DNA from: Candidatus Daviesbacteria bacterium
GTDB taxonomy: Bacteria > Patescibacteriota > Microgenomatia > Daviesbacterales > UBA10151
Direction of reading: 5' to 3'
NCBI GenBank assembly: GCA_028715175.1
Contig: JAQUSJ010000001.1
Span: forward strand, 340,550 to 404,549
Length of the DNA stretch: 64,000 nucleotides
Position numbers and translations under genes: made by a program. The number at the start of each line of letters is the position of its first letter. Positions within the stretch are counted from its first letter, which is position 1. Shown here piece after piece: positions 1 to 49,588 of this stretch. The notes beneath the pieces were generated by a model. The model had not been told where the DNA came from and did no database searches. It was given only the letters and a program-made list of their open reading frames with translations.

Positions 1-830
1 TCGCCGGATTGATCATTTCTAATACTTCCTTTGTACTGGCTTTAATATTTCTCTTCGAGCTGATAAAGATTGATTTTTCAAAACAAATAGCATATTTGAC
101 AATTATTTTAATATTGATTTTTCCAACCTCGTTTTATTTTGGTGCAGTTTATAACGAATCGCTATTTTTGCTTTTGTCAGTTCTATCTTTTTATAATGCG
201 AGAAAAGGGAATTGGTTTATTGCAGGAGTGGCAGGTATGGTTTCGTCTGCAACTAGAGTTTTTGGCGTTTTCCTTTTACCGGCACTTTTAATTGAAGCCT
301 GGCAGCAGAAGGTAGATTTTTCCAGAGCTTTTTGGATTTTGTTGATTCCCTTTGGCCTTGGAGCGTATATGTGGTATTTACAAGCCAGCGTTGGAGATCC
401 TATTGCTTTTTACAATTTTCAGACTTTGGTCGGGGAGCAACATCAAAGAGGGATAATTACTTTACCTCAAGTCTATTTTCGTTATCTTAAAATGTTCGTA
501 ACTACAAGTATCCAAAATCCGATATTTCAAACCCTAATATTAGAATTTCTTACGGGGTTGATATTTTTTTTACTTCCTGTCTATGGTTACATAAAAAAGA
601 TTAGACTTTCGTATTTGGTTTACGCGATGTTTGTGTTTTTAACGCCAACTATTCAAGGGAGCTTTTCGTCAATCCCCCGCTATGTAATTATTTTATTTCC
701 TTCATTTCTGGCAGCTGCTATATGGTTTAGTCATTTGCCAAAATTATTTAGGGCAATATTTTTGATTGTTTCTGCCCTCTTGCTTATTGCAGAAACGACA
801 CTTTTTTTAAGGGGATATTGGGTAGCATGA
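1..830 (+). CDS. Polytopic integral membrane protein, GT-C-like (PIG-V/DUF2029 mannosyltransferase-like); 5' partial, no in-frame stop upstream so it likely continues beyond the window start
   Basis: ORF 9..830 is open back to base 1. The protein is very hydrophobic with many predicted TM helices. Call is by weak resemblance only. Confidence 0.4.
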   Translation, partial: AGLIISNTSFVLALIFLFELIKIDFSKQIAYLTIILILIFPTSFYFGAVYNESLFLLLSVLSFYNARKGNWFIAGVAGMVSSATRVFGVFLLPALLIEAWQQKVDFSRAFWILLIPFGLGAYMWYLQASVGDPIAFYNFQTLVGEQHQRGIITLPQVYFRYLKMFVTTSIQNPIFQTLILEFLTGLIFFLLPVYGYIKKIRLSYLVYAMFVFLTPTIQGSFSSIPRYVIILFPSFLAAAIWFSHLPKLFRAIFLIVSALLLIAETTLFLRGYWVA

Positions 831-2092
831 AAAAATATATTAAAGGGATAGTTACACATCCGTTATTTTCTGGAAGCGCCATTATGGTAATCGGTTCAAA
901 TAGCGTTAGTTTTATAAACTACTTATATCATTTGGTAATGGGAAGAATGCTTGGACCTGCAGGATACGGAGAATTGGCATCGCTTATTGCATTAATCGGT
1001 CTTGTGGGTATAATCCCTGGATCGGTGAGCCTTGTAATTGTCAAACAAGTCTCCTCTGCTAGAAGCGATCAGGAGATAAGTAATGTAATAGGATGGCTTA
1101 AGGCAAAGATCTTTTTAGCAGCTGTAATTTTTTCAATTTCTGTTTTGGTAATCTCCCCTTTTATTGCGTCTTTTTTGAATATTCATAAAACTTCTTATTT
1201 AATATTTATTGCAGTATCTTTTTTATTTTCTCTCCAGGCGGGTTTATTCAGAGCAATACTGCAGGGTCTTTTGAAATTTAAAGAGATGATTTTCAGTATG
1301 TTAATTGAAAATAGTGCAAAATTTATTCTAAGTATTTCTCTGGTATATCTGGGATTTCAAGTTAGCGGGGTAATGTTTTCTTTGGTTATATCTGCGATCT
1401 TAGGTTTATATATTACTAATTATTATTTAAGATACCGAACTGTAAATAATACTAAGCCATCATCACATGTTAAATCAATGATGTCATTTTTAATACCTTT
1501 TACTTTACAGTCCGTTGCAATAACTTCCCTTTATTCCTCGGACGTTATTTTAGTAAAACATTTCTTTCCTGCCCACGAGGCAGGTATTTATGCGGCACTG
1601 TCTACATTGGGAAAGATAATTTTTTTTGGTACAGGTCCTATTAACACGGTAATGTTTCCTTTGGTTTCCCAAAGAAAAGCTAAAGGGCAGGATTATAAGA
1701 AAATTTTTAAATATAGTTTTCTCATGACTGCGTTGGGAGCAATTTTCGTCTCGGGATTGTATTGGTTATTCCCAACTTTTGCTATAAATTTGCTTTATGG
1801 CAGCGCGTATCTTGAAGCAAAAAATTTATTAATCTGGTTTGCGGTTTTTATTAGTTTGTTTACCCTGGGATCGCTATTAGTAAGTTATTTATTGTCTTTA
1901 GGAAAAACCAAAGTTGTGGTATTTCCTCTTACAGCAGCCACCCTTCAAATTATTGCAATTATTTTCTTTCATCAAAATTTGCTTACAGTTATATCAATTT
2001 CAATTATTATAACCGCTTTACTACTTGTAGCCTTGCTTATATACTCTATATATGGAAATAAGATTAATTTCAGTAATCGTCCCATGTTATAA
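818..2092 (+). CDS. Wzx-like oligosaccharide flippase (MOP/polysaccharide biosynthesis protein family)
   Basis: 424 aa, about 12 TM helices, N-terminal 'MLGPAGYGELA' motif typical of Wzx/PST-family exporters. Overlaps neighbours in operon fashion. Confidence 0.7.
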   Translation: MGSMKKYIKGIVTHPLFSGSAIMVIGSNSVSFINYLYHLVMGRMLGPAGYGELASLIALIGLVGIIPGSVSLVIVKQVSSARSDQEISNVIGWLKAKIFLAAVIFSISVLVISPFIASFLNIHKTSYLIFIAVSFLFSLQAGLFRAILQGLLKFKEMIFSMLIENSAKFILSISLVYLGFQVSGVMFSLVISAILGLYITNYYLRYRTVNNTKPSSHVKSMMSFLIPFTLQSVAITSLYSSDVILVKHFFPAHEAGIYAALSTLGKIIFFGTGPINTVMFPLVSQRKAKGQDYKKIFKYSFLMTALGAIFVSGLYWLFPTFAINLLYGSAYLEAKNLLIWFAVFISLFTLGSLLVSYLLSLGKTKVVVFPLTAATLQIIAIIFFHQNLLTVISISIIITALLLVALLIYSIYGNKINFSNRPML

Positions 2093-2858
2093 ACAAGAAC
2101 GAACAATTATTGGAAATCTAAAAAGGATTAAAGAGGTTTTAGATAAACTCCGTTATCCTACAGAATTAATTTGTGTGGTAGACGGGAAGATCGATAAAAC
2201 ATTCGAGAAAGCTTCAAAATTTGCCAAGAAATACGAAAACGTTCAAGTGGTCGGATACGAAACGAATCGAGGCAAAGGTTATGCAATCCGTTTTGGAATG
2301 GCTGAAAGCCATGGAGATATCATAGGTTTTATTGATGCGGGTATGGATTTAAATCCAAACGGTTTATCAATGCTTTTAGAGCATTTTGAATGGTATGATG
2401 CTGATATTATTGCAGGTTCTAAAAGGCATCCGGTATCTAAGGTGTGTTATCCTTGGCAAAGAAGAATTCTTTCTATGGGATATCAATTTCTCGTCTGGTT
2501 ATTATTTGGACTCAAAATTAGGGATACACAAGTGGGGATGAAATTTTTCAAAAGAGAAGTGCTGGAAAAAGTACTCCCCAGGCTTTTGGTGAAACGGTTT
2601 GCTTTCGATGTGGAAATGCTGGCAGTTGCCAATGATTTAGGATTTACAAGAATTTTTGAAGCACCTATTGATATCGCATTGCGCTTCGGAGGTACCTCTA
2701 CTCTCACTAGCCAGCAATTTCTAAGGACAGTTTTCGCTATGTTTGTGGATACTCTGGCAGTTTTCTACAGGTTGAAAATATTAAATTACTATTCAGATAA
2801 GAATAAACGAAAATGGAGATTTGATCCGGAATTAAATTTCAGAGTAAATGTTGGATGA
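2052..2858 (+). CDS. Glycosyltransferase family 2 (DPM1/GtrB-like)
   Basis: N-terminal 'ISVIVPCYKQE' GT2 signature, DxD-like 'IDAG' region, hydrophobic C-terminus. Confidence 0.75.
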   Translation: MEIRLISVIVPCYKQERTIIGNLKRIKEVLDKLRYPTELICVVDGKIDKTFEKASKFAKKYENVQVVGYETNRGKGYAIRFGMAESHGDIIGFIDAGMDLNPNGLSMLLEHFEWYDADIIAGSKRHPVSKVCYPWQRRILSMGYQFLVWLLFGLKIRDTQVGMKFFKREVLEKVLPRLLVKRFAFDVEMLAVANDLGFTRIFEAPIDIALRFGGTSTLTSQQFLRTVFAMFVDTLAVFYRLKILNYYSDKNKRKWRFDPELNFRVNVG

Positions 2859-4885
2859 AAATTCTACAGATTGTTATTATAGTTGTTAGTTTTTTTGTAT
2901 GGATATTGCCGAATCATGCTTTAGCTAAAACAGAAACCCTCAATCAATTTGTAAATATAGTTAATCCGGTTCGTATATCTGCATATACTAAGGATCCTAA
3001 AGCGAGTATAGCTTCTCAGTATTTCGAAGTTACAAAAAGAAACCTTCCGGCAACTTGGCTTTTTACTTATGATGCAATACAAAATGATGGAGTTAGGTCT
3101 ATTGCTAATACAATGGATCGAAATCAAGAATTAGGTCTTTTTTTAGAGGTGACACCGCTTTTTGCACGGGATGCGGGTGTAATTTATAATCAAACAGATT
3201 CCTGGCATAGATCAAATTCACTTTTTTTGTCCGGATATACGCAAGATGATAGAGAAAAATTAATTGATCAGGTTTTTAATAAATTTAGAGAAAAATTTGG
3301 CTTTTATCCTGTTTCCGTAGGATCTTGGTGGATTGATAGTTTTTCATTAGAATACATGAAAAATAAGTATGGTGTGATCGCAAATTTGACTTGCGCTGAT
3401 CAATTCGAGACTGATGGGTATCATATTTGGGGGCAGTATTGGAGCACACCTTTTTTCCCAAGTAGATATCATGCCGGCATGCCTGCAAATGATATAAATT
3501 CAAAACTTGATTTGGTGACTATTCAATGGGCAGAGAGAGATCCTTTAAACGGATACGGGAAAGGGCCTGCAAGCCTTTTTAGTACCCAGGATTATTTTGA
3601 TATTGATTACTTTCAAGAACTGGTTCGTTTTTATGCCGAAAAACATAGTAATAGCTTTGGACAAATCACAATTGGCTTGGAAGGAGATTTTACACAAGAG
3701 ACATATGCAGGTACTTTTGCGAGGCAACTTGATTTTGTTTTGGATATGAAAAATAAAGGTCTTGTTGATGTGGTAACGATGAAAGATTTTGCCGGTTGGT
3801 ATAGAAATAGTTTTCCTACAATTTCCCCTTCTCAGATTCTTGAAACAGAAGATTTTTTGGGTAAAAAGATTAAAGCAATTTGGTATCAATCACCTTTTTT
3901 AAGAGCTCATTTGACTTACAATTACGAGACTTATGAAACAAAATTTTTAGATCTTCGATTTTATTTTAATAATTTTGAGGAACCTTATTATGTTTCTCCT
4001 AATCGCGATCTTGATTTATTTATCAATATACCATCAATTATTGATTCAGCCAGTGATGAGAAAGAAGCATGGGTTGTTTTAAAGAAGAAATTGGAGGAAA
4101 TAAATGTTAATGGTAGTGATTTAGTTTTGAAATATCAGGATGGAGCTTTGATCAAATTATCGAAAGATAATTTAACTTTTTCAGGGAAGATAAATCAGAT
4201 ACCAAAGGCTTTAACTCATACACCTGCTGCTAAAATAAATAAGCAAGACAATCTCTTCTTGATATCCCCCGTAAAGAGTTGGATTTTTTCTCAAGACGGA
4301 CTAGTATTTAGAGATTTAACTCCCGAAGCCACAAATTTTCTAAGACAGAAAAGGATTATGGTTGCGGAAGCTATAATCCTACTTATTTTTACAACCGCCC
4401 TATTTTTTATTCTAAAAAGAGATTCGTCTAAGAAGAAACGCCTTTTTTCAGCAATTACAATATCGTCAATAATTTTTGGTATATTTTTTTTGTACAATTC
4501 TAATACCCGAAATTACTTTGTATCTCAATCAGAACTGGATGCGTTAATACGTTTATCATTAATGCCGGATGGTAAAATTGTAGTTTTTGATAGGGTTTGT
4601 TTGCAGTGCTCATTCCACACAAAATACTTACCTGCAGTTTTTTCCAATAAACGTAGTTATGTACCTAATGTATCTAAAAAGAAAGTTGTGTATAATTCTT
4701 CAGTTTTTACCGCTAAAACCAGGGAAGAAGCTAGGAAAGAGTTAGTTAAGCTTGAAGCGAACTATATTTATGCAGTAAGATATGAAGATTATAAGGAGAT
4801 AGTTCCATTTTCGCCGGGAGATCTTAATCTTGAAGAAATTTATTCTAATGCGAATGTAATTATTTGGAGGATAAGGAAAAATTGA
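2855..4885 (+). CDS. Exported protein of unknown function with N-terminal signal peptide and C-terminal TM anchor; possibly a carbohydrate-active (deacetylase/hydrolase-like) ectodomain
   Basis: Signal peptide 'MKILQIVIIVVSFFVWILPNHALA', a long soluble domain, then the TM helix 'IMVAEAIILLIFTTALFFIL'. No confident family match by eye. Confidence 0.5.
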   Translation: MKILQIVIIVVSFFVWILPNHALAKTETLNQFVNIVNPVRISAYTKDPKASIASQYFEVTKRNLPATWLFTYDAIQNDGVRSIANTMDRNQELGLFLEVTPLFARDAGVIYNQTDSWHRSNSLFLSGYTQDDREKLIDQVFNKFREKFGFYPVSVGSWWIDSFSLEYMKNKYGVIANLTCADQFETDGYHIWGQYWSTPFFPSRYHAGMPANDINSKLDLVTIQWAERDPLNGYGKGPASLFSTQDYFDIDYFQELVRFYAEKHSNSFGQITIGLEGDFTQETYAGTFARQLDFVLDMKNKGLVDVVTMKDFAGWYRNSFPTISPSQILETEDFLGKKIKAIWYQSPFLRAHLTYNYETYETKFLDLRFYFNNFEEPYYVSPNRDLDLFINIPSIIDSASDEKEAWVVLKKKLEEINVNGSDLVLKYQDGALIKLSKDNLTFSGKINQIPKALTHTPAAKINKQDNLFLISPVKSWIFSQDGLVFRDLTPEATNFLRQKRIMVAEAIILLIFTTALFFILKRDSSKKKRLFSAITISSIIFGIFFLYNSNTRNYFVSQSELDALIRLSLMPDGKIVVFDRVCLQCSFHTKYLPAVFSNKRSYVPNVSKKKVVYNSSVFTAKTREEARKELVKLEANYIYAVRYEDYKEIVPFSPGDLNLEEIYSNANVIIWRIRKN

Positions 4886-6003
4886 ATATCTTAATTTTAT
4901 CTTGGAGGGGGCCGGGTCATCCGAATGCCGGAGGTGCTGAAATTTCTACTCATGAACACGCTAAAGGATGGGTTAAAGGAGGTCATCAGGTTACTCTTTT
5001 TACATCTTTATATCCTCGAGCAAATAAAGAGGAAATTGTAGACGGCGTGAGGATTGTCAGACGAGGAGGACAAGTTTTAGGCGTTCATTGGGAAGCTTTT
5101 AAATGGTATGTATTTGAAAATCATCAAAAATACGATTTGGTGGTAGATCAATTTCACGGCATCCCGTTTTTTACTCCTTTTTATGTTAAGGTTAGAAAAT
5201 TAGCTTTTATTCATGAAGTAACCAAAGAAGTATGGCGTCTAAATCCTTGGCCATGGCCATTTTGTTTAGGACCAAAGATACTCGGTCCCATTATTGAACC
5301 TCTTATATTTAAGTTATTCTATAGGAATATTCCATTTATGACAGTTTCCGAATCAACGAGAAAAGACCTGATAGAATGGGGAATCCCCAGGCAAAATATA
5401 AACGTAATTCATAATGGCATACAATTTCCAAGAATGGTTTTTCCTAAAAAACAAACAAAAAAAACAATAACGTTTCTGGGAGCTTTGGCAAAAGACAAAG
5501 GGATCGAAGATGCAATCAATATTTTTTCTATACTGCAGAGAAGATACAAGGATAGTCTTCAATACTGGATTATTGGGAAGGCCGACAGTCGATATCAAAA
5601 TTTTTTAAAAAATTTAATAACTAGTTTAGGTCTTACTGATGTTAAGTTTTGGGATTTTGTTTCAGAGAAAAAGAAGTTTGAGTTATTAGCAGGGTCTTAT
5701 ATTTTAATAAATCCCTCAATACGTGAAGGTTGGGGATTGGTGGTTATTGAGGCTGCTAGGGTCGGAACCCCTACAATAGCTTTTGATGTGTCTGGTCTTA
5801 GAGATTCTGTGATAGATAATAAGACGGGTGTTTTAAGTAAAGGTTTGACACAAAAGGATTTAGCTGATCAAGTAATAAATCTATTGGAAAATGAGCAAAA
5901 ATATAATAGAATGAGTCAAGCTGCAATGATATGGAGTAGGAATTTCTCATGGGAGAAAGCTTCAGCAATGAGTTTATGTCTGATTGAAAAAATAGCAGAT
6001 TAA
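4864..6003 (+). CDS. Glycosyltransferase family 4 (GT-B fold)
   Basis: C-terminal 'EGWGLVVIEAARVGTPTIAFDVSGLRDSV' matches the GT4 E-x7-E nucleotide-sugar binding motif. Confidence 0.8.
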   Translation: MEDKEKLNILILSWRGPGHPNAGGAEISTHEHAKGWVKGGHQVTLFTSLYPRANKEEIVDGVRIVRRGGQVLGVHWEAFKWYVFENHQKYDLVVDQFHGIPFFTPFYVKVRKLAFIHEVTKEVWRLNPWPWPFCLGPKILGPIIEPLIFKLFYRNIPFMTVSESTRKDLIEWGIPRQNINVIHNGIQFPRMVFPKKQTKKTITFLGALAKDKGIEDAINIFSILQRRYKDSLQYWIIGKADSRYQNFLKNLITSLGLTDVKFWDFVSEKKKFELLAGSYILINPSIREGWGLVVIEAARVGTPTIAFDVSGLRDSVIDNKTGVLSKGLTQKDLADQVINLLENEQKYNRMSQAAMIWSRNFSWEKASAMSLCLIEKIAD

Positions 6004-6017
6004 CAAGATTTAAGTAT

Positions 6018-7004
6018 ATGATTAAAAAAAAGAAAATAGCGATTACAGGAGCCGGTGGTTTTATTGGACATCATCTGGTTACTTATCTTCGGAAGAAAGG
6101 TTGCTTCGTTCGTGGTATTGATTTAAAACTTCCGGAATATAAAACTTCAGACGCCGATGAATTTTTATTGCTTGATTTAAGAAAGAAAGAAAATGCACTA
6201 GAAGCAACTAAGGGCGTGGATTATGTTTATGCGCTAGCAGCTGATATGGGTGGGATGGGTTATATTTCATCGCATAATGCGTTGATTTTATATAATAATG
6301 CTGCAATTAATTTAAATACCTTAGAATCTGCAAGAATAAATAAGGTAAAAAGACTGTTTTATTCGTCTTCAGCTTGTATTTATCCGGAATATAAACAAAT
6401 AAAAGCAAAGTTAGCTCCGTTGAAAGAGGAAGATGCATATCCCGCCCAACCACAGGATGCATATGGTTGGGAAAAGCTCTTTACAGAACTTATTGCGCGA
6501 TACTATAAAGAAGATTATGGTTTAGAAACCAGGGTAGCAAGGTTTCATAATATTTTTGGTCCGTTTGGCACCTGGGATGGAGGAAGAGAAAAAGCCCCAG
6601 CGGCTATTTGCAGAAAAGTCGCCATAGCCAAATTGACAGGCAAAAATAAAATAGAAATTTGGGGGGACGGGAAACAAACAAGATCATTCTGTTACATTGA
6701 TGATTGTACGAAAGGAATTTATAAATTAATGATGTCTGATTTTTCTGAACCTCTCAATATAGGTCAAGATAGAATGGTAACTATAGATCAGTTGGTTGAC
6801 ATAATCTCTGAAATTGCAGGAGTAAAATTAAAGAAAAATCATATTCTTGGACCTCAAGGTGTCAGAGGAAGGAATTCTGATAATAGTAAATTAAGGAAAA
6901 TTTTAAAATGGGAACCGGAAATCTCACTTGAAAAAGGCCTAGAAAAGACTTATAAATGGATAGAGAGACAAGTAGAAGGAAATTATATTAAGGAAACAAA
7001 ATAA
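6018..7004 (+). CDS. gme: GDP-mannose 3,5-epimerase-like NAD-dependent epimerase (plant GME type; makes GDP-L-galactose/GDP-L-gulose)
   Basis: Rossmann 'ITGAGGFIGHHL'. The blocks 'LAADMGGMGYISSHNALILYNNAAINLNTLESARINKVKRLFYSSSACIYPEYKQ' and 'RFHNIFGPFGTWDGGREKAPAAICRK' closely match blocks I recall from plant GME (ADMGGMGFIQSNHSVIMYNNTMISFNM...RFHNIYGPFGTWKGGREKAPAAFCRK). Confidence 0.75.
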   Translation: MIKKKKIAITGAGGFIGHHLVTYLRKKGCFVRGIDLKLPEYKTSDADEFLLLDLRKKENALEATKGVDYVYALAADMGGMGYISSHNALILYNNAAINLNTLESARINKVKRLFYSSSACIYPEYKQIKAKLAPLKEEDAYPAQPQDAYGWEKLFTELIARYYKEDYGLETRVARFHNIFGPFGTWDGGREKAPAAICRKVAIAKLTGKNKIEIWGDGKQTRSFCYIDDCTKGIYKLMMSDFSEPLNIGQDRMVTIDQLVDIISEIAGVKLKKNHILGPQGVRGRNSDNSKLRKILKWEPEISLEKGLEKTYKWIERQVEGNYIKETK

Positions 7005-7006
7005 CA

Positions 7007-7510
7007 ATGAAATTAGTTGCAGGGTTTTTTACAATATCCCTTTTTGTAATAATATTTTTTTCTACGCCATTTGATTTAATTTATGCTAATGAGGTTGAGC
7101 AGTTGGGTTTACCAGAAACCACCGTTAATCCCGGTTCGTTTTATTACTCTTTCAAAAGATTATTTGAAAAAGGTCAAGAAAAATTACTTTTTTTCCAGCA
7201 ATCCAAAAAAAGTTTTTATGAATCTTTAGTAAAAATGAGACTTTCGGAATTAAATTATGTAATTGACAAAAAAGCTTTATCAGAAGTTCAGCGTAGCAGT
7301 GAAAGATTTGCCTATCAAGCGGGTATTCTGACTGAAGAAGTAATAAAACAAAATCAAATTAACGATAAAGAAAATCTGATTAAAGAATTTGATAGGTACA
7401 ACAAATTCCTGTCTAATTTAAGAGATAAATATCCGGCAAATTCTAGTTTTTGGATGTTAGTTCAGCATGATATTAATACCCTAAATATATCATCTAATCG
7501 TTTGAAATAA
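7007..7510 (+). CDS. Small secreted/membrane-anchored helical protein (DUF5667-like motif 'NPGSFYYSFKRLFE')
   Basis: N-terminal hydrophobic signal/anchor, then a motif that resembles the DUF5667 'LPGSPLYFLKR' signature. Confidence 0.4.
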   Translation: MKLVAGFFTISLFVIIFFSTPFDLIYANEVEQLGLPETTVNPGSFYYSFKRLFEKGQEKLLFFQQSKKSFYESLVKMRLSELNYVIDKKALSEVQRSSERFAYQAGILTEEVIKQNQINDKENLIKEFDRYNKFLSNLRDKYPANSSFWMLVQHDINTLNISSNRLK

Positions 7511-7577
7511 GTTTTAAATTAAACTAGGGTCAAAAAACTATTGCAATAACTATTTTCTCCAGGTAGAATGTTTCGAT

Positions 7578-8846
7578 ATGAGTGTCGGGGCAAGGGAAAG
7601 AGGAACTGTTAAAAGAGAAGTCTTTAGGTTAGAAGTTTGCCGGGCTTGTGGAAGCAATAAATTATTGTTGTTTCTTCAATTGGGGCCTACACCTGCGCCT
7701 AATGGATTCTTGAAAGCGCACCACCGCCATCAGGCAGAAAAGTTTTATCCGCTTGATGTTTGTTTTTGTCAGGATTGTGGATTAGTGCAGCTTGCTCATG
7801 TTGTCTCTCCCCAAATAATGTTTAAAAATTACGTATATATTCCTTCTACATCTGAAACTATGCGTAATCATTTTGCCGGTTTGGCATTAGATGCTATCAA
7901 AAAAACAGCGGCAAAAGAAGACGATTTAGTAATAGATATCGGCAGTAATGACGGTACGCTCTTAAAATCGTTTAAAGCACACAAAATGAAGATATTGGGA
8001 GTTGATCCGGCTGAGAATCTTGTAAAAAAAGCAAACAAAGAAGGGGTGAATACAATGTGCGCTTTATTTACTAATAAGCTGGCAAAAGAAATTAAAAAAA
8101 AGTATGGGAAAGCCAGGATTATTACCGGTACTAATGTTGTTGCACACGTGCATGATCTAAACGATTTCCTGGAAGGTATAAATGCCCTTCTTTCTGATGA
8201 AGGATTATTTATTTGTGAGTTTCCATATTTAATTGGTTTGCTTGAGGGGATTGAGTTCGACACTATTTACCAGGAACATCTTTCTTATTTTTCAATTTCA
8301 CCGTTTAATAGATTATTAAAAAGACATGGGTTAACTTTAATTGATGTCCAAAGGCTTCCGGTTCATGGAGGTTCCGTGAGAGTTTTTGTCAGTAAAAAAT
8401 CCCTACCACAAAGTATGCGCGTAAAGAATTTACTGAAACTTGAGGAAAAAAAGAAAATTTTAAAACAGGAGACATATTTAAAGTTTAGAAAAAAGGTAGA
8501 TAAAGTGAGGCATGAATTAGTCCAATTGCTTTGGACCCTGCGGATAAAGAACAAAAGTATTGTGGGTTACGGTGCATCCGCAAAAGGAAATATAATATTG
8601 AATTATTGTAGAATTGGACCGGAAACATTAGATTATATCGTTGATTCTATATCGTATAAACAAGGTAAATTTACTCCGGGAATGCATATTCCGATTTTTC
8701 CAGAGTCGAAACTTTTAGAAGATCAACCTGATTATACTTTGCTTCTAGCTTGGAATTTTGCTGATGAGATAATAAAAAAGCAATCAGAGTATCGGAAACG
8801 CGGGGGAAAATTTATTCTTGCGTTACCTAAATTGACAATTGTTTAG
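7578..8846 (+). CDS. NDP-hexose C-methyltransferase (TylCIII/NovU-type: zinc-ribbon + class I SAM MTase + C-methyltransferase C-terminal domain)
   Basis: Cys pairs 'CRACGS...CQDCGLVQLAHV' (putative Zn-binding MTase domain), SAM motif 'VIDIGSNDGTLL', and about 420 aa length typical of sugar C3/C5-methyltransferases. Confidence 0.75.
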   Translation: MSVGARERGTVKREVFRLEVCRACGSNKLLLFLQLGPTPAPNGFLKAHHRHQAEKFYPLDVCFCQDCGLVQLAHVVSPQIMFKNYVYIPSTSETMRNHFAGLALDAIKKTAAKEDDLVIDIGSNDGTLLKSFKAHKMKILGVDPAENLVKKANKEGVNTMCALFTNKLAKEIKKKYGKARIITGTNVVAHVHDLNDFLEGINALLSDEGLFICEFPYLIGLLEGIEFDTIYQEHLSYFSISPFNRLLKRHGLTLIDVQRLPVHGGSVRVFVSKKSLPQSMRVKNLLKLEEKKKILKQETYLKFRKKVDKVRHELVQLLWTLRIKNKSIVGYGASAKGNIILNYCRIGPETLDYIVDSISYKQGKFTPGMHIPIFPESKLLEDQPDYTLLLAWNFADEIIKKQSEYRKRGGKFILALPKLTIV

Positions 8847-9726
8847 CGAGGGTCTCGATTGTTTCTTCCCATTTATTGAATTTGAGTTTGAGTATTTTTT
8901 GAGTCTTCTCCACTTTTAATCCTCCGTATTGCGGATATCTAGGTAGATTATTTTTTAGAAATCCTTCTATGCTAGTTTGTTTTACAACCTCCTTTTTACC
9001 TCTCGCTTTCTCTATCAGGAAATTTGCTAATTTAAATGGAGTAAAAATATTAGTACTGGAAATATGGTAAATTCCTGGTAGCCTTTTTGTTAAAAGTATT
9101 TCTAGACAATGTGTGACCTCGTCAATATATGTCAAGGTTAAATATTGATTATTAAACATAGGGTGAATCTTTTCCGTATCGTAAAGATTAAGAATTTTGC
9201 GGATATAATCTAGCTTACCGTCGTATTTAACTCTAACAGGGTTTGCAATTCGCAAAATTGCAGGATTTTTTAAATTGTTTACAATCAGCTTTTCTCCTTC
9301 TTTTTTGGTCCACCCATACCAGGATAATAGATTAAGATTATTCTCGGTAGGATAATTTTCATCATAGGGTCCAGGGTTATCTTTATTTCCAGAAAAAACT
9401 GCATCAGTGGATATATAGATAAAATATGTCTGATCTCCTGCAGCTTTAATTAGATTTGCCGTACCTTCTACATTAACAATCCAACAAAGAGCTTGTTTAT
9501 TATTTCTTTCTTCTTCAGCTCCTGTTACGTCAGTAAATGCTGCAAAATGCATAATAGTATCCGGTTTGTGTAATTTAAAGAAATTTTCTACGGATTTTTT
9601 ATCTGTGATATTTAACTCTTCTACTGAAGGCGTAAGAATAATATCTCCACTTTTTAAACTTGGGTGATAGTTTTCAACAAAATGAGAGCCAACTAAGCCA
9701 TTGCCGCCGGTTATTAGTATTTTCAT
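8827..9726 (-). CDS. NAD(P)-dependent sugar-nucleotide reductase/epimerase (RmlD-like SDR)
   Basis: 'MKILITGGNGLVGSHF' Rossmann motif, 'NVEGTANL', length about 300 aa. Confidence 0.65.
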   Translation of the reverse strand: MKILITGGNGLVGSHFVENYHPSLKSGDIILTPSVEELNITDKKSVENFFKLHKPDTIMHFAAFTDVTGAEEERNNKQALCWIVNVEGTANLIKAAGDQTYFIYISTDAVFSGNKDNPGPYDENYPTENNLNLLSWYGWTKKEGEKLIVNNLKNPAILRIANPVRVKYDGKLDYIRKILNLYDTEKIHPMFNNQYLTLTYIDEVTHCLEILLTKRLPGIYHISSTNIFTPFKLANFLIEKARGKKEVVKQTSIEGFLKNNLPRYPQYGGLKVEKTQKILKLKFNKWEETIETLAKQLSI

Positions 9727-10469
9727 AGTAAATTATGGTTTTTAAAAAGTTTTGTTTTAAATCCTAATTTAGCCAAAATAAATAAGAATAATATTTTAAA
9801 TGTTCCTAAAGAATATTTTATACTATTTTTCAAACTAGCTCCTCTTTTTTTGCCGGTATAGTTTGTTTCTACAGGTACTTGAGTTATTTGAATATTTTCA
9901 TAGATGGCTTGAGCAATAAGTTCAAAGCTAAACAGGTAATCGTTTGAGTTCTCCCAGAAGTTGACTTTACTTAGCATATTCCTAGTGTACACTCTAAAGC
10001 CTTGATGGAAATCATTTAACCTAACTCCAAACACCAAGCTATCAATAGAATTAAGTAGTCTAAGAGGAATTAATTTCCAAATATACATACCATTTTCTAT
10101 CGGTCTTAATAGATTAGTAAAACGGTTGCCCAATACGAATTGGCTTCCTTGTTGAATTTGTTTTAATGCTTCCGGGATAGCCGAGGGATTATATTCTCCG
10201 TCCGGGTGGATGTCTATGATGATATCTGCTCCTTGTTCTAGAGCCAAACTTAAGGCTCTTCTCATATTACCGCCATAGCCCAGATTAACTGGATTTTTAT
10301 AGGATATAATACCTAATTTTTTTGCTAATTCAAAAGTATTATCTTTTGAGGCGTCATCAACTAAAATTATTTCATCAGCTAAATCTTTAGGGAAGTCCTT
10401 GTAAAATTTTTCTAAAGTCTTGCCAGCGTTGTAGGCTATAAATAAAACAATTGTTTTTGGTTTATGCAT
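9723..10469 (-). CDS. Glycosyltransferase family 2 (DPM1/GtrB-like, C-terminal hydrophobic segment)
   Basis: 'IVLFIAYNAGKTL...ILVDDASKDNT' GT2 signature; 'IIDIHPDGE' DxD-like; C-terminal 'KILFLFILAKLGF'. Confidence 0.75.
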   Translation of the reverse strand: MHKPKTIVLFIAYNAGKTLEKFYKDFPKDLADEIILVDDASKDNTFELAKKLGIISYKNPVNLGYGGNMRRALSLALEQGADIIIDIHPDGEYNPSAIPEALKQIQQGSQFVLGNRFTNLLRPIENGMYIWKLIPLRLLNSIDSLVFGVRLNDFHQGFRVYTRNMLSKVNFWENSNDYLFSFELIAQAIYENIQITQVPVETNYTGKKRGASLKNSIKYSLGTFKILFLFILAKLGFKTKLFKNHNLL

Positions 10470-10512
10470 ATTTCCTTTTCAGCTCCTATAAATTATACTA
10501 GTTTTCGACAGT

Positions 10513-12411
10513 ATGAGAAATAACAAATTAATATTTTGGAAAATAACAACCTTTTTTACCAAGAGAAGTTCTCTACAAATTTTTTTAATTCTTTTTCTTT
10601 TTGTATTCCTAATACAGTTCTCCTTGCTTAACATTATTTTAAAAAATGGATTTACTATGGAGGAGTGGTTATTGTTGTTTGATTACAAAACAATTGGACT
10701 AAACGCAAATTTTTTAGACAAATTTTTGAATATTTTTTATATAAAAGGCTTTTATACCACCTATCAAGTTATTTATATAGGTGTACTTGAAAGCTTATTC
10801 AAAGGCAATTATCAAGCCTATCAAATAACTAATATAATCTTTAAAGCACTAGCGACTCTCTCTCTGTATCCGCTTATACTAATAGTATTCAAGAGAAGAC
10901 TGCTGGCTTTTTTAACTACAGTGCTTTACGCAATAAGCTATTCTTCTGCAGGAGCTTTACAGTTTGTAGTCAAGGGCAGTGACTACCTGGCGATATTTTT
11001 TATGAATGTGTGCTTAATAGCATATTATTTATCTTTTAGAAAGAAAATAAAATTTTTATACATAACTGCTATTCTCTTACCTATAACTTTTCTATTTTCG
11101 CCCATTAGAATATATCCATTTTTGTCATTTATTGTTTTAGTTGAAGTTGTGATTTGGGTAAGAATCAGAGGATTATTGGGTTTAGTAACTGCATTATTAA
11201 GGTTAACATTAGTATTTTCTCTTTTTTTAATAATGGTGCTTTTGTTATCTCCAACGACAAGCGGTTACTTAAATGGGCCATTGATCGTATATAGATTTTT
11301 ATCCCATGGTAATTATCAGCTCCTATTGACCCCCTTTGCTGGATTAGGATATACGTTTTTGACAAACGATTATTGGTCATTTATATTTGGGAATGTTACT
11401 TTTGATAGTTTTAGAAATTTTTTATTCTTTTTACTTCATGGACCAATACTTATTTACTCAATTCTGGCAATATTAATGGGGATTTTAATCACTAAAAACC
11501 CTCTTCGTCTAATTTTGGGAATTATATCTGCAAATTTGCTTTTTGAAATAGTCAGCTACTTTCTAATCACCAATATTAGAGGTTCGGTTGGACCTGATGT
11601 AAAGGTTTTTGATCCAATAGGCACTTATCCAATCTTCCTTGGATTCTTCTGCTTATCGATTGCCGTATCAAGTCTAATTTTATGGTTGAGAATTCATAGG
11701 TCAAATATTTTGCTGTTGGTTCTTTTTATCGGCCCAATTTTTTCCAGTGTATTCTTGTGGGGTACGTGGTTTATCATAGGTGATATTTTAAATTTTAAAG
11801 AAGGGATACATTGGTATTTGATAATACCGCCAATAGGCAGCAGTCTATTTTTAGCCGGTTTAATGGTATTGGGATTTGATCGGATAAAGCGGATAGTTAA
11901 TTCTTATTTAAAATATACTTTGATAGGTTTTTTGTTTCTAACGATACTACCTTTATACTTGATTAGTGGTAAGGAGATTAATACAACTTTTACTGCTTTA
12001 CTTAAAACAGGATATAAAGCTTCTGATCAAGAACAAATGAAGAGCAGATTGCTTAGTTATATTAAAGAGCCTCTGGATAAGAATCCTGCACTGTTCTATT
12101 TCGAGAGCGAAGAAAAGATATTTTATCCGGTATATCTGGTTGTAGGGTTCGAACAGACAATGCTTTTTAGGAATTGGGAAGTTGTCAACGGATGCGTAGG
12201 TATTATTTACGATAAGAGTGTTCTTGAAAAGTCAGTAGCAGTAAAGGACGGTATTGAGGGATTTCAGGCAAGTAGTCTGTGTGTATCCGATTATTTCGCC
12301 GTAGAACGCCGGAATGTATTTTTTAGATCTGATAACTTTTATGCATTCAGGTTGAAAGATAAAAATGTAGTAGATATTAAAGAAGAAGTTCTTAAGAATT
12401 TGAATTTTTAA
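10513..12411 (+). CDS. Polytopic membrane protein, putative GT-C-fold glycosyltransferase ('YGDDW'-family paralog with conserved C-terminal 'YAFRLKDKN' motif)
   Basis: 632 aa, more than 10 TM helices. The C-terminal soluble tail shares a motif with 13588, 15336 and 27699. Confidence 0.5.
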   Translation: MRNNKLIFWKITTFFTKRSSLQIFLILFLFVFLIQFSLLNIILKNGFTMEEWLLLFDYKTIGLNANFLDKFLNIFYIKGFYTTYQVIYIGVLESLFKGNYQAYQITNIIFKALATLSLYPLILIVFKRRLLAFLTTVLYAISYSSAGALQFVVKGSDYLAIFFMNVCLIAYYLSFRKKIKFLYITAILLPITFLFSPIRIYPFLSFIVLVEVVIWVRIRGLLGLVTALLRLTLVFSLFLIMVLLLSPTTSGYLNGPLIVYRFLSHGNYQLLLTPFAGLGYTFLTNDYWSFIFGNVTFDSFRNFLFFLLHGPILIYSILAILMGILITKNPLRLILGIISANLLFEIVSYFLITNIRGSVGPDVKVFDPIGTYPIFLGFFCLSIAVSSLILWLRIHRSNILLLVLFIGPIFSSVFLWGTWFIIGDILNFKEGIHWYLIIPPIGSSLFLAGLMVLGFDRIKRIVNSYLKYTLIGFLFLTILPLYLISGKEINTTFTALLKTGYKASDQEQMKSRLLSYIKEPLDKNPALFYFESEEKIFYPVYLVVGFEQTMLFRNWEVVNGCVGIIYDKSVLEKSVAVKDGIEGFQASSLCVSDYFAVERRNVFFRSDNFYAFRLKDKNVVDIKEEVLKNLNF

Positions 12412-12434
12412 GTAAATAACTCTGATGTTAAAAT

Positions 12435-12698
12435 TTGCTTCAAAATGGCAAATTGGAAAAAGACTGTACGGCAACTTTTTATCAAGGAATAGATAAGTTG
12501 AGTAAAATAACCGTCCATGATAACAGAATAAAAGGCTTTGTTTATAGCGGACAATGCAGCCAAGGCGTTAAGGGAGGTGAAAGGGTTTTTTATCCGATTG
12601 ATAACTTTTATCCTTTTAGAATTAAAAATGGAGAAATTATTAATATAAAACAGGAAATTTTGTCCGAACTCACTTTTTTGCTACGGTTAAATAAATAG
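12435..12698 (+). pseudogene. Orphan fragment homologous to the C-terminal tail of the upstream GT-C-like gene (remnant of a deleted or decayed paralog)
   Basis: The 87-aa ORF 'GFVYSGQCSQGVKGGERVFYPIDNFYPFRIKNGEIINIKQEILSELTF' aligns to the upstream gene's end 'GFQASSLCVSDYFAVERRNVFFRSDNFYAFRLKDKNVVDIKEEVLKNLNF'. It has no N-terminal membrane domain. Confidence 0.4.
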
Positions 12699-13551
12699 GT
12701 GATTGTCCGACAATAAAGAAACATATCTCTACGAATGTCGAAATTATAATTAATGGAAATAATAAAATAAGAAAAATCGAATTATTAGAATCTTTAAAAA
12801 AATCAATCGGTCGCGACGGAAATAAATTTAATGTACTTGCTATAAATCCGGTAATTGTATATTCAAATGCTGGAACTCCGGAATGAGATATACTTCTAAA
12901 TTTCGATCTAGTTAAAATCTTTTCTAATCCCTTTGGAGTTAGATGTGATAAATGGCGTGGAGGATCTAAATGATACCAAAAGCGTTTAAAAATATGTGAT
13001 TCTAAGCAGTCAGCTCTCGGATATTCTACGAAAAGATAACCCCCATCATTCAGGATACTAGCTGCTTTTTTTATATATTCATGAGGGGAAACAGTATGTT
13101 CTAAACTTTCCCAAAAAACTACTGCATCAAATTTTATTTTAGGTTTCCAAGTTAAAAAATCTGTTTTTATTACATCCGGGTTTTGAATTTTAGCAGAAGG
13201 GAGATCTAAAGATGTTGCTTCAAAATTTTTGTTTAAAAATTTACTAAAGATGGCTTCCCCAGCTCCTACATCTAAAATCCTTCCTTTTTTCAAAAAATCC
13301 ATGATCCAATATTTTCGTCTAAGTTGAAAAAGGTGGTACATGGTTTTTTTCAAGATTCCGAGAAATCCTTTGGGTATCCAGTAGCTATCATTGTAATATT
13401 GACCAATATTTTTTGGAACAGGATATGTAAATCCATTTAAGCATTTTTTACAAAAGTAAATTTGGAATTCATCGCAATTAAACCTTTGAAAAGTCGGTGA
13501 ACTATTGCAATTAGGGCATTTTATCCGATGCTTGTTGTCTTTAGCTTTCAT
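12670..13551 (-). CDS. Class I SAM-dependent methyltransferase with N-terminal zinc-ribbon
   Basis: 'CPNCNSS...CKKCLNGF' Cys4 ribbon; SAM motif 'ILDVGAGEAIF'. Confidence 0.7.
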   Translation of the reverse strand: MKAKDNKHRIKCPNCNSSPTFQRFNCDEFQIYFCKKCLNGFTYPVPKNIGQYYNDSYWIPKGFLGILKKTMYHLFQLRRKYWIMDFLKKGRILDVGAGEAIFSKFLNKNFEATSLDLPSAKIQNPDVIKTDFLTWKPKIKFDAVVFWESLEHTVSPHEYIKKAASILNDGGYLFVEYPRADCLESHIFKRFWYHLDPPRHLSHLTPKGLEKILTRSKFRSISHSGVPAFEYTITGFIASTLNLFPSRPIDFFKDSNNSIFLILLFPLIIISTFVEICFFIVGQSPIYLTVAKK

Positions 13552-13587: not shown

Positions 13588-15333
13588 TTATCTTTCTTCT
13601 AGTAATTTTTGGCGTGTGATATTGGTAATATTTATCAGATTATCCTTACCCTGAAGACGAAAAGCATAAATATGGTCGATAGGAATAGGTTTTAACGGAT
13701 ATCCGTATGCCTTAAGCGATTGACCGTCTTTAACGGCAGATACTACATCCTTCCAATTATCAGTTGCTCCAGGGAATTTATCGCTTTCTGTCAGGTTATA
13801 TAAAAGAGCTATATGAAAAGGAAATCCAAACATAACCGATTCTCCCAGGATCCTAGCATTAGTTTCGTCTCTTTCGAAAAATAACAGAAACGGTTCTTTT
13901 CCGATATTTGGAATACGGGGAATAGATGACCAGATTTTGTCAACTATTTGCTGACTATGTGAGTTTAATAATTTATCAATAGATGTTCGAGTTGATGTTA
14001 TATGCAGGATTAGAAATAACGATAGTAATAAAGCCAAATAGACTTGATTTTTAAATTTCTTACCTAAGCTTATTATGATTGCCAGTAATATTGAAATACC
14101 TATTGCCGATGTTGTTAGATATCTATGGGTACTATCAATAGGGGAAGCAGGATTCCAAAGCCAAGCCATAAAGAAAGAAAATAAAGTCCATGAAAATGAT
14201 ATAAAAAGTGCAGTAAGTATGTTTTTTTGAGTTTGATACTTGAACATTAATAAAATCCATATAATAATTGCCAATCCTCCTACGATAGACATTAGAATCA
14301 TATTTGAGCTGGAGAAAGTAACAATATTTAACTTCCGGACAACAAAGACACTAAATATCCATATACTTGCAGTTATTAAGCATTTTTTTATATCATCTTT
14401 ATCAAATTTCTCAATATTTGCTTTGAATATAATTAAAAAGATTAAAAATAAAGCAATAGCAGGGAGAGTAACGGAAGATAACATATCGCTTTTTGTATTT
14501 ATTTGAATATTGGGAAAGGCGAAATTAGGGATAAACATTCCACCTATAGTTATTATTGGGTATAGAAGAAAGTCAGAGCGTCCTTCACTTAGCATTTTTT
14601 GGATTGTAGTGATACTTGAATTTAGTCTACTAAACCAATCCCCGCTATTCCCTAATGAATATCCGGAAATACCGATAGTGAGTAGTATAGTGAAAACAAA
14701 TATAACTTTAAGGAAGGAATGTTTTAAGTTATCAAATGTCTTGTTTTTAATTAACCAAAAAGCTTCTAAGGATAAAATAAATAGCGGTGCTCCAATCATT
14801 CGCTGTGATGCAGTGACACACGCAAGGTAAAAAAATATCCCGGAAAATAATAGAGTTCTTATTTTCTTAGTTTCGTGAAAAATTATGTAGAAATATAAAA
14901 AAATATTGAAGAAGGCAATTGTAAGATATGTGGGCATAGTCAGCAACCAGCCTGTGCTATCAAATCCTATTGTTGTAATTGAAAAAAACAACATAGCAAA
15001 AAAGGTAGCCAACTTATTCTTTGTGAGGTAGAAAACAAGCGGATATAGTGAGAAAGCAGCAAATAACCGAAAGATATAAGAGGTGACTTCATAGTAAAAA
15101 GCATTATTGCCAAAAAATTGATGAAGTAAACCCATGATGATATCTTGAGAACCATAAGGAGTGAGATAGTAGCTAAATAAATTCCATCCCTCTTTTGAAG
15201 GAGGATTTACATGTACGACATATCTGAAAATAGCCAACCAATCATCACCATATAAACCAATACCGAAACTTGGGATTAAGATTAAATAACTGATAATCAA
15301 TACTAATAAAAATTGCAGATAAACTAGTTTCAT
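13588..15333 (-). CDS. Polytopic membrane protein, putative GT-C-fold glycosyltransferase ('YGDDW' family)
   Basis: 581 aa, many TM helices, 'LYGDDWLAIF' near the N-terminus, C-terminal 'YAFRLQGKDNLINITNI' shared with its neighbour. Confidence 0.5.
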   Translation of the reverse strand: MKLVYLQFLLVLIISYLILIPSFGIGLYGDDWLAIFRYVVHVNPPSKEGWNLFSYYLTPYGSQDIIMGLLHQFFGNNAFYYEVTSYIFRLFAAFSLYPLVFYLTKNKLATFFAMLFFSITTIGFDSTGWLLTMPTYLTIAFFNIFLYFYIIFHETKKIRTLLFSGIFFYLACVTASQRMIGAPLFILSLEAFWLIKNKTFDNLKHSFLKVIFVFTILLTIGISGYSLGNSGDWFSRLNSSITTIQKMLSEGRSDFLLYPIITIGGMFIPNFAFPNIQINTKSDMLSSVTLPAIALFLIFLIIFKANIEKFDKDDIKKCLITASIWIFSVFVVRKLNIVTFSSSNMILMSIVGGLAIIIWILLMFKYQTQKNILTALFISFSWTLFSFFMAWLWNPASPIDSTHRYLTTSAIGISILLAIIISLGKKFKNQVYLALLLSLFLILHITSTRTSIDKLLNSHSQQIVDKIWSSIPRIPNIGKEPFLLFFERDETNARILGESVMFGFPFHIALLYNLTESDKFPGATDNWKDVVSAVKDGQSLKAYGYPLKPIPIDHIYAFRLQGKDNLINITNITRQKLLEER

Positions 15334-15335
15334 AC

Positions 15336-17144
15336 TTAACGCTGGTTTTGTAAAAATTCCACTAATTTTTTTCTAGCATTATCGGTGATATTTATCAAAT
15401 TATCTTTGCCTTGAAGATGGAAGGCGTAAACGCTTGAAGGTGAGATTGGATTTAAAACACGGCCGCCAAAATGAGGTGCAAATGATTTTCCATCCAAAAC
15501 TGCAGATTCTACATCTTTCCAGACAATCATTGAAACAGGGTTCTTATTCATCTCCGGTATGTTATAAAGTATAGCCATATGAAACGGAAAACCAAAAGTA
15601 ACCGTATCATTTAATATAGATCCATTAGTCTCATCACCTTCAAAATAAAATATTAGTGGTTCCTTATTCTTACCAATTTCTGAAATATAAGGCATTTGGG
15701 ACCAAATTTTGTTACTGGTTTCAGCACTATGATTTTCTAAAAGCCTCTGAAGATGTATACGGGTATTTATTATATGTATTAGTATTAAGAAAAAAAATAA
15801 TGATAATACGATTTTTTGATACTTTTGATTTTTTACCAAAGAAACTAAAGTGGCAAGGAAAAGACTTATGCCTACTGCCGATCCAATTAGATACCGGTGA
15901 TAAGTAACCAAAAGAAAAAATGGGTCCCATAACCATGGTATTAAGAAAGCTACGACAGACCAACATAAAGATGAAAATATTGCCTGGGAGATTAATTGAT
16001 TTCGATAAAATTTATGAAGCAAATATATTCCTAATATTGATATATAACCCCCGATAAGAAGTGAAATTAAGAATTTAGGGCCTGGGAAAGTTGTTTGATT
16101 AGCAAAATAAACTACAGCAGAGATTAAACTCCATAATGCAGTAAAAACTAATGTTGTCCTGGAAGAATAAGTTTTTTTTGGAAATATTGAACGCATAATG
16201 AATAACGATATGATGGTGAATATGCTGTACACGAGCAATATCAAAAAAACTAACTGAGATTTTTTTAACGCTATCGGGAAATTATCTATAGCCGTATCAG
16301 GAATAAACATACTGCCGAATGAAATGACTGGATAAAATAGGAAGTCGAATCTGTAATTTTCTAATTGCTTGATCATCTTTGATAATGAATCTGTTGTTTG
16401 AGTAAGCAAAAAGATATTGGATTGAGGTTTTGCTTCATTTTTTTGTGTTGAGGAAAAAAAAGGATTTCCAGTAACATTAATAAATATTAAAATTAAGAAA
16501 ATAAAAGATAATCGTAAAGATACCTTTTTTAGAATTTTTTTGCTCCAATTTTGGATGATCCAAAAAAATTCAATTAAAAGAATAAATAGTAGAAGTCCAG
16601 TCATTCGAACAGGAACAGTTACAAAAGACAGATAAAAAAATAATCCTGCGTATAACAACTTTTTAACCTCTTTTTCTTCTCGTGATCTCAGGAAGTAATA
16701 TAGAAATAGATTAAAGAATGTTAGACCTATATATGAAGGAATATGAGGAAGATATTCTGTAGTTTCTAATCCAATAGTAGTGATGCAAAAAAACAACATT
16801 GCAAAAAAAGAAGCCAGTTTGCTTTTGGTGAGATAAAAAGTAAGGGGATAAAGCGAAAAAGCGACTATAATTCTTACGATCATTGAAGTCATATAATAAT
16901 AAGAAGCATGATAACCATAAATTGCCCGGAAAAAACCCATTAAAATAGCTTGTGATCCATATCTAGTTAATGCTTCATTTAAAAAATCCCTCATACTTGG
17001 AGTAGATCCTTGGGGAAATAGATAGTTATATATAGAGAATATCATCCAATCGTCGCCGTAAAAAGATAATTTAAGAGTTGGAAAGAATACTACTAGCCCG
17101 ACTAAGAAAATTATCAAGAACATTAACCATAGTTTCATTAGCAT
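15336..17144 (-). CDS. Polytopic membrane protein, putative GT-C-fold glycosyltransferase ('YGDDW' family, tandem paralog of 13588..15333)
   Basis: 602 aa, 'FYGDDWMIFSIY' N-terminal motif, C-terminal 'YAFHLQGKDNLINITDN'. Collinear with the neighbour. Confidence 0.5.
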   Translation of the reverse strand: MLMKLWLMFLIIFLVGLVVFFPTLKLSFYGDDWMIFSIYNYLFPQGSTPSMRDFLNEALTRYGSQAILMGFFRAIYGYHASYYYMTSMIVRIIVAFSLYPLTFYLTKSKLASFFAMLFFCITTIGLETTEYLPHIPSYIGLTFFNLFLYYFLRSREEKEVKKLLYAGLFFYLSFVTVPVRMTGLLLFILLIEFFWIIQNWSKKILKKVSLRLSFIFLILIFINVTGNPFFSSTQKNEAKPQSNIFLLTQTTDSLSKMIKQLENYRFDFLFYPVISFGSMFIPDTAIDNFPIALKKSQLVFLILLVYSIFTIISLFIMRSIFPKKTYSSRTTLVFTALWSLISAVVYFANQTTFPGPKFLISLLIGGYISILGIYLLHKFYRNQLISQAIFSSLCWSVVAFLIPWLWDPFFLLVTYHRYLIGSAVGISLFLATLVSLVKNQKYQKIVLSLFFFLILIHIINTRIHLQRLLENHSAETSNKIWSQMPYISEIGKNKEPLIFYFEGDETNGSILNDTVTFGFPFHMAILYNIPEMNKNPVSMIVWKDVESAVLDGKSFAPHFGGRVLNPISPSSVYAFHLQGKDNLINITDNARKKLVEFLQNQR

Positions 17145-25323: not shown

Positions 25324-25324
25324 T

Positions 25325-49576: not shown

Positions 49577-49588
49577 CTGATATTGAGA

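Follow-up and report, generated by a model that had tools for sequence, protein, structure and literature searches.

GDP-D-mannose 3,5-epimerases (GMEs) have been described in both plants and bacteria. The first bacterial GME to be characterized, in 2019, was MfGM35E of Methylacidiphilum fumariolicum (UniProt I0K0X9), which is 50.5% identical to the Arabidopsis enzyme (AtGME) and is an active GM35E that performs the full reaction (PMC6678494). Bacterial enzymes of the GME family also act on GDP-mannose in two other settings, namely BlmG, for the L-gulose of bleomycin, and the A201A pathway, for L-galactose (PMC6678494). GMEs have been distinguished from GMER and GalE by specific residues, which in AtGME numbering are the S143/Y174/K178 triad, the C145/K217 acid-base pair, R306, R243 and N203 (PMC8787198). 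In GMER, a His serves as the base, and the catalytic Cys is tuned by a Lys, not an Arg (PMC8787198). When we searched the literature, no paper specifically on GME in CPR, Patescibacteria or Acidobacteria came up.

Here, we analyze a GME homolog encoded in a 64,000-nucleotide stretch of DNA with a GC content of ~33%, which we call the window. The gene (MDD5415739.1) and a neighboring GT4 glycosyltransferase gene (MDD5415738.1) share a contig of 743,708 bp, which belongs to a MAG of Candidatus Daviesbacteria (CPR). Daviesbacteria are ultra-small CPR bacteria, whose cell surfaces are almost unknown.

Identification of the GME gene

The gene occupies positions 6018-7004 of the forward strand as an ATG-to-TAA open reading frame and encodes a 328-aa extended-SDR protein; the reverse strand opposite it is full of stops. 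NCBI names the product only as an 'NAD-dependent epimerase/dehydratase family protein', and our Pfam search likewise matched only generic extended-SDR families, PF01370 (E 1e-43) and PF16363. The first-pass annotation of this DNA had proposed that an ORF here resembles plant GME and had quoted two peptide blocks in support. The ORF is real, and both blocks, ADMGGMGYISSHNALILYNNAAINLNTLESARINKVKRLFYSSSACIYPE and RFHNIFGPFGTWDGGREKAPAAICRK, are present in its translation.

It had also been claimed that this likeness goes beyond generic SDR similarity, and a phmmer search of PDB sequences agrees. The top five entries are all GMEs, four from Arabidopsis (2c59, 2c54, 2c5a, 2c5e) and one from Myrciaria dubia (8sg0), and they match residues 5-322 of the window protein with E-values of 4e-115 to 7e-114 and scores of 384-388 bits. 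The best of these is Arabidopsis 2c59 (E 4e-115, 388 bits), whereas the next family, GDP-L-fucose synthase, reaches 98 bits, and all non-GME entries score at most 98. In addition, the Fcl and GalE models of NCBIfam score far below their cut-offs (see below). The outcome that had been named in advance as speaking against the proposal, namely best matches to generic GalE or GDP-fucose synthase proteins, thus did not occur.

Active site and predicted structure

An alignment of the window protein with AtGME has identical residues at 170 of 314 aligned positions (54%). In this alignment, Ser143, Tyr174 and Lys178 of the AtGME catalytic triad correspond to S118, Y149 and K153, and the acid/base pair Cys145 and Lys217 corresponds to C120 and K192, the latter being a Lys and not the His of GMER. 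The Arg that tunes the catalytic Cys (Arg306) is R285, and the diphosphate-binding residues Arg243 and Asn203 are R222 and N178. The glycine-rich NAD+ motif GxxGxxG/A is also present, as G11-A-G-G14-F-I-G17. The residues therefore differ from those of GMER, which has a His base and a Lys in place of the Arg, where this protein has Lys192 and Arg285. They also differ from those of GalE, which has no extra acid/base pair, in that the Cys/Lys pair is present.

Both C120 and K192 are invariant among the 26 close homologs that we aligned and are kept in most of 149 cluster representatives; the full eight-residue signature, SCYKNKRR, is found in 106 of these 149. The other extended SDR of the window (39080-40015) does not have the Cys.

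An AlphaFold2 model of the window protein has a pLDDT of 80 and a pTM of 0.82, and is weak at residues 75-83 and 120-144, the latter segment adjoining the catalytic Cys. When this model was searched with Foldseek, the best matches were the GME crystal structures 8sg0 and 2c59 (TM 0.90, E ~1e-40), followed by GalE-type epimerases (E ~1e-26).

On all features that can be tested from its sequence, the window protein belongs to the GME family. It is an ordinary member of a known family, so that the gain is a better annotation, from generic to specific for MDD5415739.1, and not a surprise; the current view of the GME family is unchanged by this gene.

Genomic context

The GME gene lies in a run of closely packed forward-strand genes at positions 9-7510. 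The first gene (9-830) is cut by the window edge and encodes the C-terminal 273 of ~387 aa of a PIG-V-like polytopic mannosyltransferase (PF04188, Mannosyl_trans2). This product has ~6 TM-like segments and is 73% identical to residues 115-387 of the product of a gene in a related locus (L084:3689-4852), which carries PF04188. Next are a Wzx-type polysaccharide flippase of the Polysacc_synt type (818-2092; PF01943, PF13440), a GT2 glycosyltransferase (2052-2858; PF00535), and a 676-aa protein (2855-4885) that has no Pfam or NCBIfam match and for which we estimate an N-terminal signal-like segment and ~2 internal TM segments. The gene immediately upstream of GME is the GT4 gene (4864-6003; Glycos_transf_1, Glyco_transf_4), whose product is 100% identical to MDD5415738.1. 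Downstream of GME is a gene for a protein with a DUF5667 domain (PF18915) and one N-terminal TM segment (7007-7510); DUF5667 proteins are typical of CPR genomes.

Within this run, adjacent genes overlap by 13, 41, 4 and 22 nt, and are then separated by gaps of 14 nt (GT4 end to GME start) and 2 nt (GME stop to DUF5667 start). Based on this packing, GME is probably cotranscribed with the genes for the PIG-V-like mannosyltransferase, Wzx, GT2, the 676-aa protein and GT4. Promoter and terminator scans of positions 1-13000 gave counts no higher than in shuffled sequences, and the transcription unit is not defined by them. A tRNA scan found none, and hence gives no hint of an integration site.

The first-pass annotation's placement of the gene in a glycan locus adjoining GT4 and GT2 genes is borne out both by the Pfam assignments above and by related loci. 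A GT4 homolog is directly upstream of GME in seven Daviesbacteria-like loci (L081, L001, L002, L003, L082, L083 and L084), and, among the matches listed, 14 contigs of the same size occur in both the GME and the GT4 match lists. In one strain (L081), GME is 95% identical and the gene order is the same over 10.4 kb, with 83% DNA identity. The GT2 at 2052-2858 is 74-82% conserved in L081, L001, L002 and L003. The 676-aa protein is present in part of the related loci: its homologs are 84% identical in L081 and 56% identical in L001, and L082 has a 680-aa gene in the corresponding position. The position of Wzx is kept in all Daviesbacteria-like loci, with an identity of just 48-55%. We observed that the Wzx at 818-2092 is 55% identical to its counterpart at L081:709-1959, while flanking genes are 78-95% identical (95% for both GME and the C-methyltransferase described below). 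This divergence between the window and the L081 strain is a local hot-spot, typical of surface-glycan loci.

Two of the seven loci, L001 (CAYQAW010000003.1) and L002 (CAZFYQ010000002.1), are labelled 'uncultured Gammaproteobacteria'. They have a GC content of 34%, the Daviesbacteria order of PIG-V-like, Wzx, GT2, GT4 and GME, and 54-79% protein identity to the window. The Gammaproteobacteria label is probably wrong.

Beyond the DUF5667 gene are a sugar C-methyltransferase gene (7578-8846; Methyltransf_13/14) and, convergent with it on the reverse strand, a gene for an RmlD-like NDP-4-keto-sugar reductase (8827-9726; PF04321), which scores 139 bits with TIGR01214, for which the cut-off is 224. 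In L081, L083 and L084, the DUF5667 gene is also present, but there it adjoins the C-methyltransferase gene and not GME. In L083 and L084, GME is followed by an extra block (L083:8978-14911, L084:8978-14922), made up of an unknown gene and genes for a reverse-strand GT2, a UDPG/GDP-Man dehydrogenase and an SDR epimerase, before the DUF5667 and C-methyltransferase genes are reached. This block is absent from L081 and from the window (7004-7578), so that insertions or deletions distinguish the glycan loci of these relatives. Since the block separates GME from these downstream genes, they probably form, together with the RmlD-like reductase gene, a neighboring branch of the locus, separate from the GME step. 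We considered a functional link between GME and the pair of C-methyltransferase and RmlD-like reductase, and rejected it given the ~6 kb of other genes that lie between them and GME in L083 and L084.

The whole window (1-64000) is one island for glycan synthesis and modification, with at least 13 GT2 or GT4 genes, at least 10 SAM methyltransferase genes and two Wzx flippases (818-2092 and 59392-60651). It also encodes a DegT-type aminotransferase (21707-22801), a carbamoyltransferase (22882-24585), a WecB-like 2-epimerase (30061-31158, reverse strand) and an AsnB-like amidotransferase (37267-39114). We recognized no gene for a priming transferase (Bac_transf/WecA), a Wzy or a nucleotidyltransferase in the window. 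The transketolase-like genes at 24599-25834 have their N-terminal (TPP-binding) part split into 24599-24919 and 24922-25323, followed by an intact Transket_pyr gene (25325-25834). The split reading frames indicate a frameshift, which might reflect a pseudogene, an assembly error or a programmed event.

Eleven large polytopic membrane proteins, each with 7-13 TM-like segments, are encoded at 10513-12411, 13588-15333 (reverse strand), 15336-17144 (reverse strand), 27699-29231, 31196-33901, 33939-36299, 45702-49235, 49583-52615, 52690-54333, 54477-55955 and 56661-59360. Almost none of them has a Pfam match, the exception being the protein at 54477-55955, which matches PMT_2. They probably represent undescribed families of GT-C-type glycosyltransferases or polymerases. 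Those at 13588-15333 and 15336-17144 are paralogs (41% identical). The products of the adjacent genes 45702-49235 (1177 aa) and 49583-52615 (1010 aa) both have ~12 TM segments and share 87% identity across 643 aa, which looks like a recent tandem duplication; the first of the pair carries DUF5667, and 31196-33901 encodes a third paralog (29% identical). Three GT2 proteins (9723-10469 on the reverse strand, 62931-63635 and 2052-2858) resemble polyprenyl-phosphate sugar synthases, namely AglJ, PpgS and dolichyl-phosphate hexose transferase, with scores below NCBIfam cut-offs. Together with the GT-C-like proteins, these GT2s suggest extracytoplasmic glycosylation from lipid-phosphate-sugar donors.

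Distribution and context in other bacteria

According to the first-pass annotation, GME homologs are rare in bacteria. This turned out to be wrong. In a scan that used one genome per prokaryotic species, we confirmed relatives in at least 550 species-representative genomes. These belong to many phyla, including Acidobacteriota, Chloroflexota, Verrucomicrobiota, delta-proteobacteria, NC10, Gemmatimonadota and CPR. A word-indexed protein search found at least 8000 proteins at E<=1e-30, and at the same threshold 1149 clusters were matched when 50%-identity representatives were searched exhaustively. The best 120 of the at least 8000 proteins are all at least 70% identical to the window protein, and several of them, including 70%-identical proteins, carry the JGI name 'GDP-D-mannose 3',5'-epimerase'. 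Among the at least 550 relatives of the genome scan, the best 80, which come from these same groups (with Pyrinomonadaceae, Bryobacteraceae and Terriglobia for the Acidobacteriota, and Daviesbacteria for CPR) and from Binatota, have 66-78% identity to the window protein, as against 54% for plant GME. Thus, the term 'plant-type', which had been applied to this gene, holds as a statement of family and not otherwise.

In other phyla, the GME homolog typically follows genes for Wza (Poly_export) and Wzc (Wzz plus kinase). A Wzc-type gene is upstream of the GME homolog in 32 loci, directly so in 24, and a Wza-type gene in 27. Other neighbors are GT2, GT4, priming transferases and methyltransferases. 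The association of GME homologs with polysaccharide assembly is therefore general. GME homologs thus occur widely in polysaccharide loci of bacteria from many phyla, and since NCBIfam has no GME model, these enzymes are systematically under-annotated.

A further observation concerns carbamoyltransferases. In neighbor clustering, a NodU/CmcH-type carbamoyltransferase gene was directly upstream of the GME homolog in six loci. Loci with a carbamoyltransferase upstream of the GME homolog are L007, L010, L037, L038, L060, L062 and L071, of delta-proteobacterial, Binatota, Chloroflexota and Verrucomicrobiota origin, and the enzymes are 29-33% identical to that encoded at 22882-24585 of the window. 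This adjacency may hint at carbamoylated L-sugars.

Predicted reaction and role

We consider it likely that the gene encodes a genuine NAD+-dependent GDP-D-mannose 3,5-epimerase, and that L-galactose or L-gulose enters a cell-surface glycan by way of a glycosyltransferase. The predicted activity on GDP-mannose follows from the homology to AtGME and from the activity of MfGM35E, which is at a comparable distance. By homology, Tyr149, Lys153 and Ser118 would oxidize C4 of GDP-mannose using a tightly bound NAD+. In the resulting 4-keto intermediate, C5 and subsequently C3 would be inverted by the acid/base pair of Cys120, tuned by Arg285, and Lys192. Re-reduction would free GDP-L-galactose, along with some GDP-L-gulose as a side product, as a mixture at equilibrium. 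This equilibrium is unfavourable and would be drawn forward by a glycosyltransferase using up the L-sugar nucleotide, which would thereby place L-galactose or L-gulose in the glycan. Given the membership in the GME clade, the active-site residues and the glycan-locus context, it is reasonable to infer that GDP-L-galactose or GDP-L-gulose is a glycan precursor in this organism.

An alternative is that this is an enzyme of the GME clade with a shifted reaction. It might invert C5 only and yield essentially GDP-L-gulose, as proposed for BlmG, or its substrate might be a GDP-hexose carrying a modification, for example GDP-mannuronate or a mannose that is methylated or in the 6-deoxy form. GM35Es naturally free GDP-L-gulose as a side product, and homologs of the BlmG type are thought to supply L-gulose. 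Moreover, of the 72 loci with callable neighbors, 20 have a UDPG/GDP-mannose dehydrogenase gene within three genes of the GME homolog, and L082-L084 have one 1-4 kb downstream of GME; with such neighbors, some parts of the clade might use altered substrates. The richness of the locus in methyl-, carbamoyl- and aminotransferases also fits modified sugars. However, the window has no UDPG/GDP-Man dehydrogenase, and lacks between GME and DUF5667 the block that contains one in relatives. The active-site set of AtGME is complete, with the acid and base for C3 and C5 unchanged, and the protein is at least as close to AtGME (54%) as is MfGM35E (50.5%), which performs the full reaction. We therefore regard a shifted reaction as rather improbable for this gene.

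A second alternative is that the protein is a generic extended-SDR epimerase or reductase, i.e., GalE or GMER/Fcl, that merely resembles GME. The generic public annotation, the restriction of Pfam matches to PF01370 and PF16363, and the rank of Fcl as the top NCBIfam match might seem to point this way. However, the best NCBIfam matches, which are Fcl and GalE, miss their cut-offs by a wide margin: the Fcl model (NF047922) scores 130 bits with a cut-off of 500, and the GalE model (TIGR01179) scores 75.8 bits with a cut-off of 262.3. Because NCBIfam has no GME model, the top rank of Fcl at a score far below its cut-off is due to a gap in that library and does not speak for Fcl. The gap of 290 bits among the PDB matches favours GME, Lys192 and Arg285 are as in GME, and GalE lacks the Cys/Lys pair. 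Regarding Fcl in particular, no GDP-mannose 4,6-dehydratase is found in the window, where the only other candidate scores 70 bits with the gmd model, as compared to 415. This alternative is effectively refuted.

Least probable of all is a role in an ascorbate-type L-galactose pathway like the Smirnoff-Wheeler pathway of plants, in which GME acts as the committed epimerase: the Pfam matches of the 51 window ORFs are just to glycosyltransferases, methyltransferases, sugar-nucleotide-modifying enzymes, flippases and membrane proteins, with none of the GDP-L-galactose phosphorylase, L-galactose-1-phosphate phosphatase or L-galactose dehydrogenase kind within the 64 kb, and the neighbors in 80 other bacterial loci are genes for polysaccharide export and assembly.

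Returning to a GDP-mannose 3,5-epimerase that serves a surface glycan, the source of the substrate is a weak point of the model. The CPR lineage has a reduced metabolism, and Pfam and a motif scan found no manA, manB, manC, PMI or any nucleotidyltransferase in the 64-kb window. In the window plus 84 loci, the ManC-like nucleotidyltransferase motif had two matches only, both in non-CPR loci. The PIG-V-like mannosyltransferase in the predicted operon hints at mannose metabolism.

The conserved upstream GT4 is the best candidate for a user of the GME product. To our knowledge, no bacterial L-galactosyl- or L-gulosyl-transferase family has been defined, and for this reason the prediction draws on the adjacency of the two genes. 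The product might instead be consumed by a GT2, or might pass via polyprenyl-phosphate to GT-C enzymes. A more specific hypothesis, which we put forward only tentatively, is that Daviesbacteria have a surface glycan or glycoprotein with L-galactose or L-gulose, attached either by the upstream GT4 or, from a polyprenyl-phosphate carrier, by one of the many GT-C-like proteins of the island on the outside of the membrane. If the former is true, this GT4 (MDD5415738.1, with its orthologs) would be the first bacterial L-galactosyl- or L-gulosyl-transferase to be defined by sequence. In any case, the model predicts that a CPR bacterium places an L-hexose, L-galactose or L-gulose, in its envelope glycan, and the GT4-GME pair is a concrete candidate for such a transferase, with possible use in glycoengineering.

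Comparison with characterized enzymes

The plant enzymes AtGME (2C59/2C54/2C5A/2C5E) and Myrciaria dubia GME (8SG0) share the extended-SDR fold with the model of the window protein (TM 0.90). The 54% identity to AtGME extends across the catalytic core, in which the Ser/Tyr/Lys triad, the Cys/Lys pair and the equivalents of Arg306, Arg243 and Asn203 are identical. However, the window protein lacks the N-terminal extension (~27 aa) and the C-terminal tail (~30 aa) of plant GME, has a 4-residue insertion at 202-205, and has GxxGxxG where AtGME has GxxGxxA. The contexts also differ, since the gene of the window is part of a glycan locus, while plant GME belongs to ascorbate metabolism.

GMER/Fcl/WcaG enzymes are similar in being extended SDRs that act on a GDP-hexose and perform 3,5-epimerization via a 4-keto intermediate with a catalytic Cys. 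They differ in their His base, in having Lys for Arg, in their 6-deoxy-4-keto substrate, which is supplied by Gmd, and in a final reduction by NADPH. The window protein has the residues of GME, and scores 98-130 bits against GMER.

BlmG and the GME of the A201A pathway belong to secondary-metabolite clusters of Actinobacteria, whereas the context of the window gene is that of a surface glycan, without NRPS, PKS or nucleoside genes. BlmG is also just 42% identical to AtGME, as compared to 54% for the window protein.

MfGM35E differs in coming from a thermophile of the Verrucomicrobiota. Like the window protein, it is a GME homolog from a bacterium and self-sufficient, and the two have their conserved residues in common. 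Its gene is also flanked by those for a glycosyltransferase and a methyltransferase, and it has been proposed to function in envelope glycan synthesis (PMC6678494).
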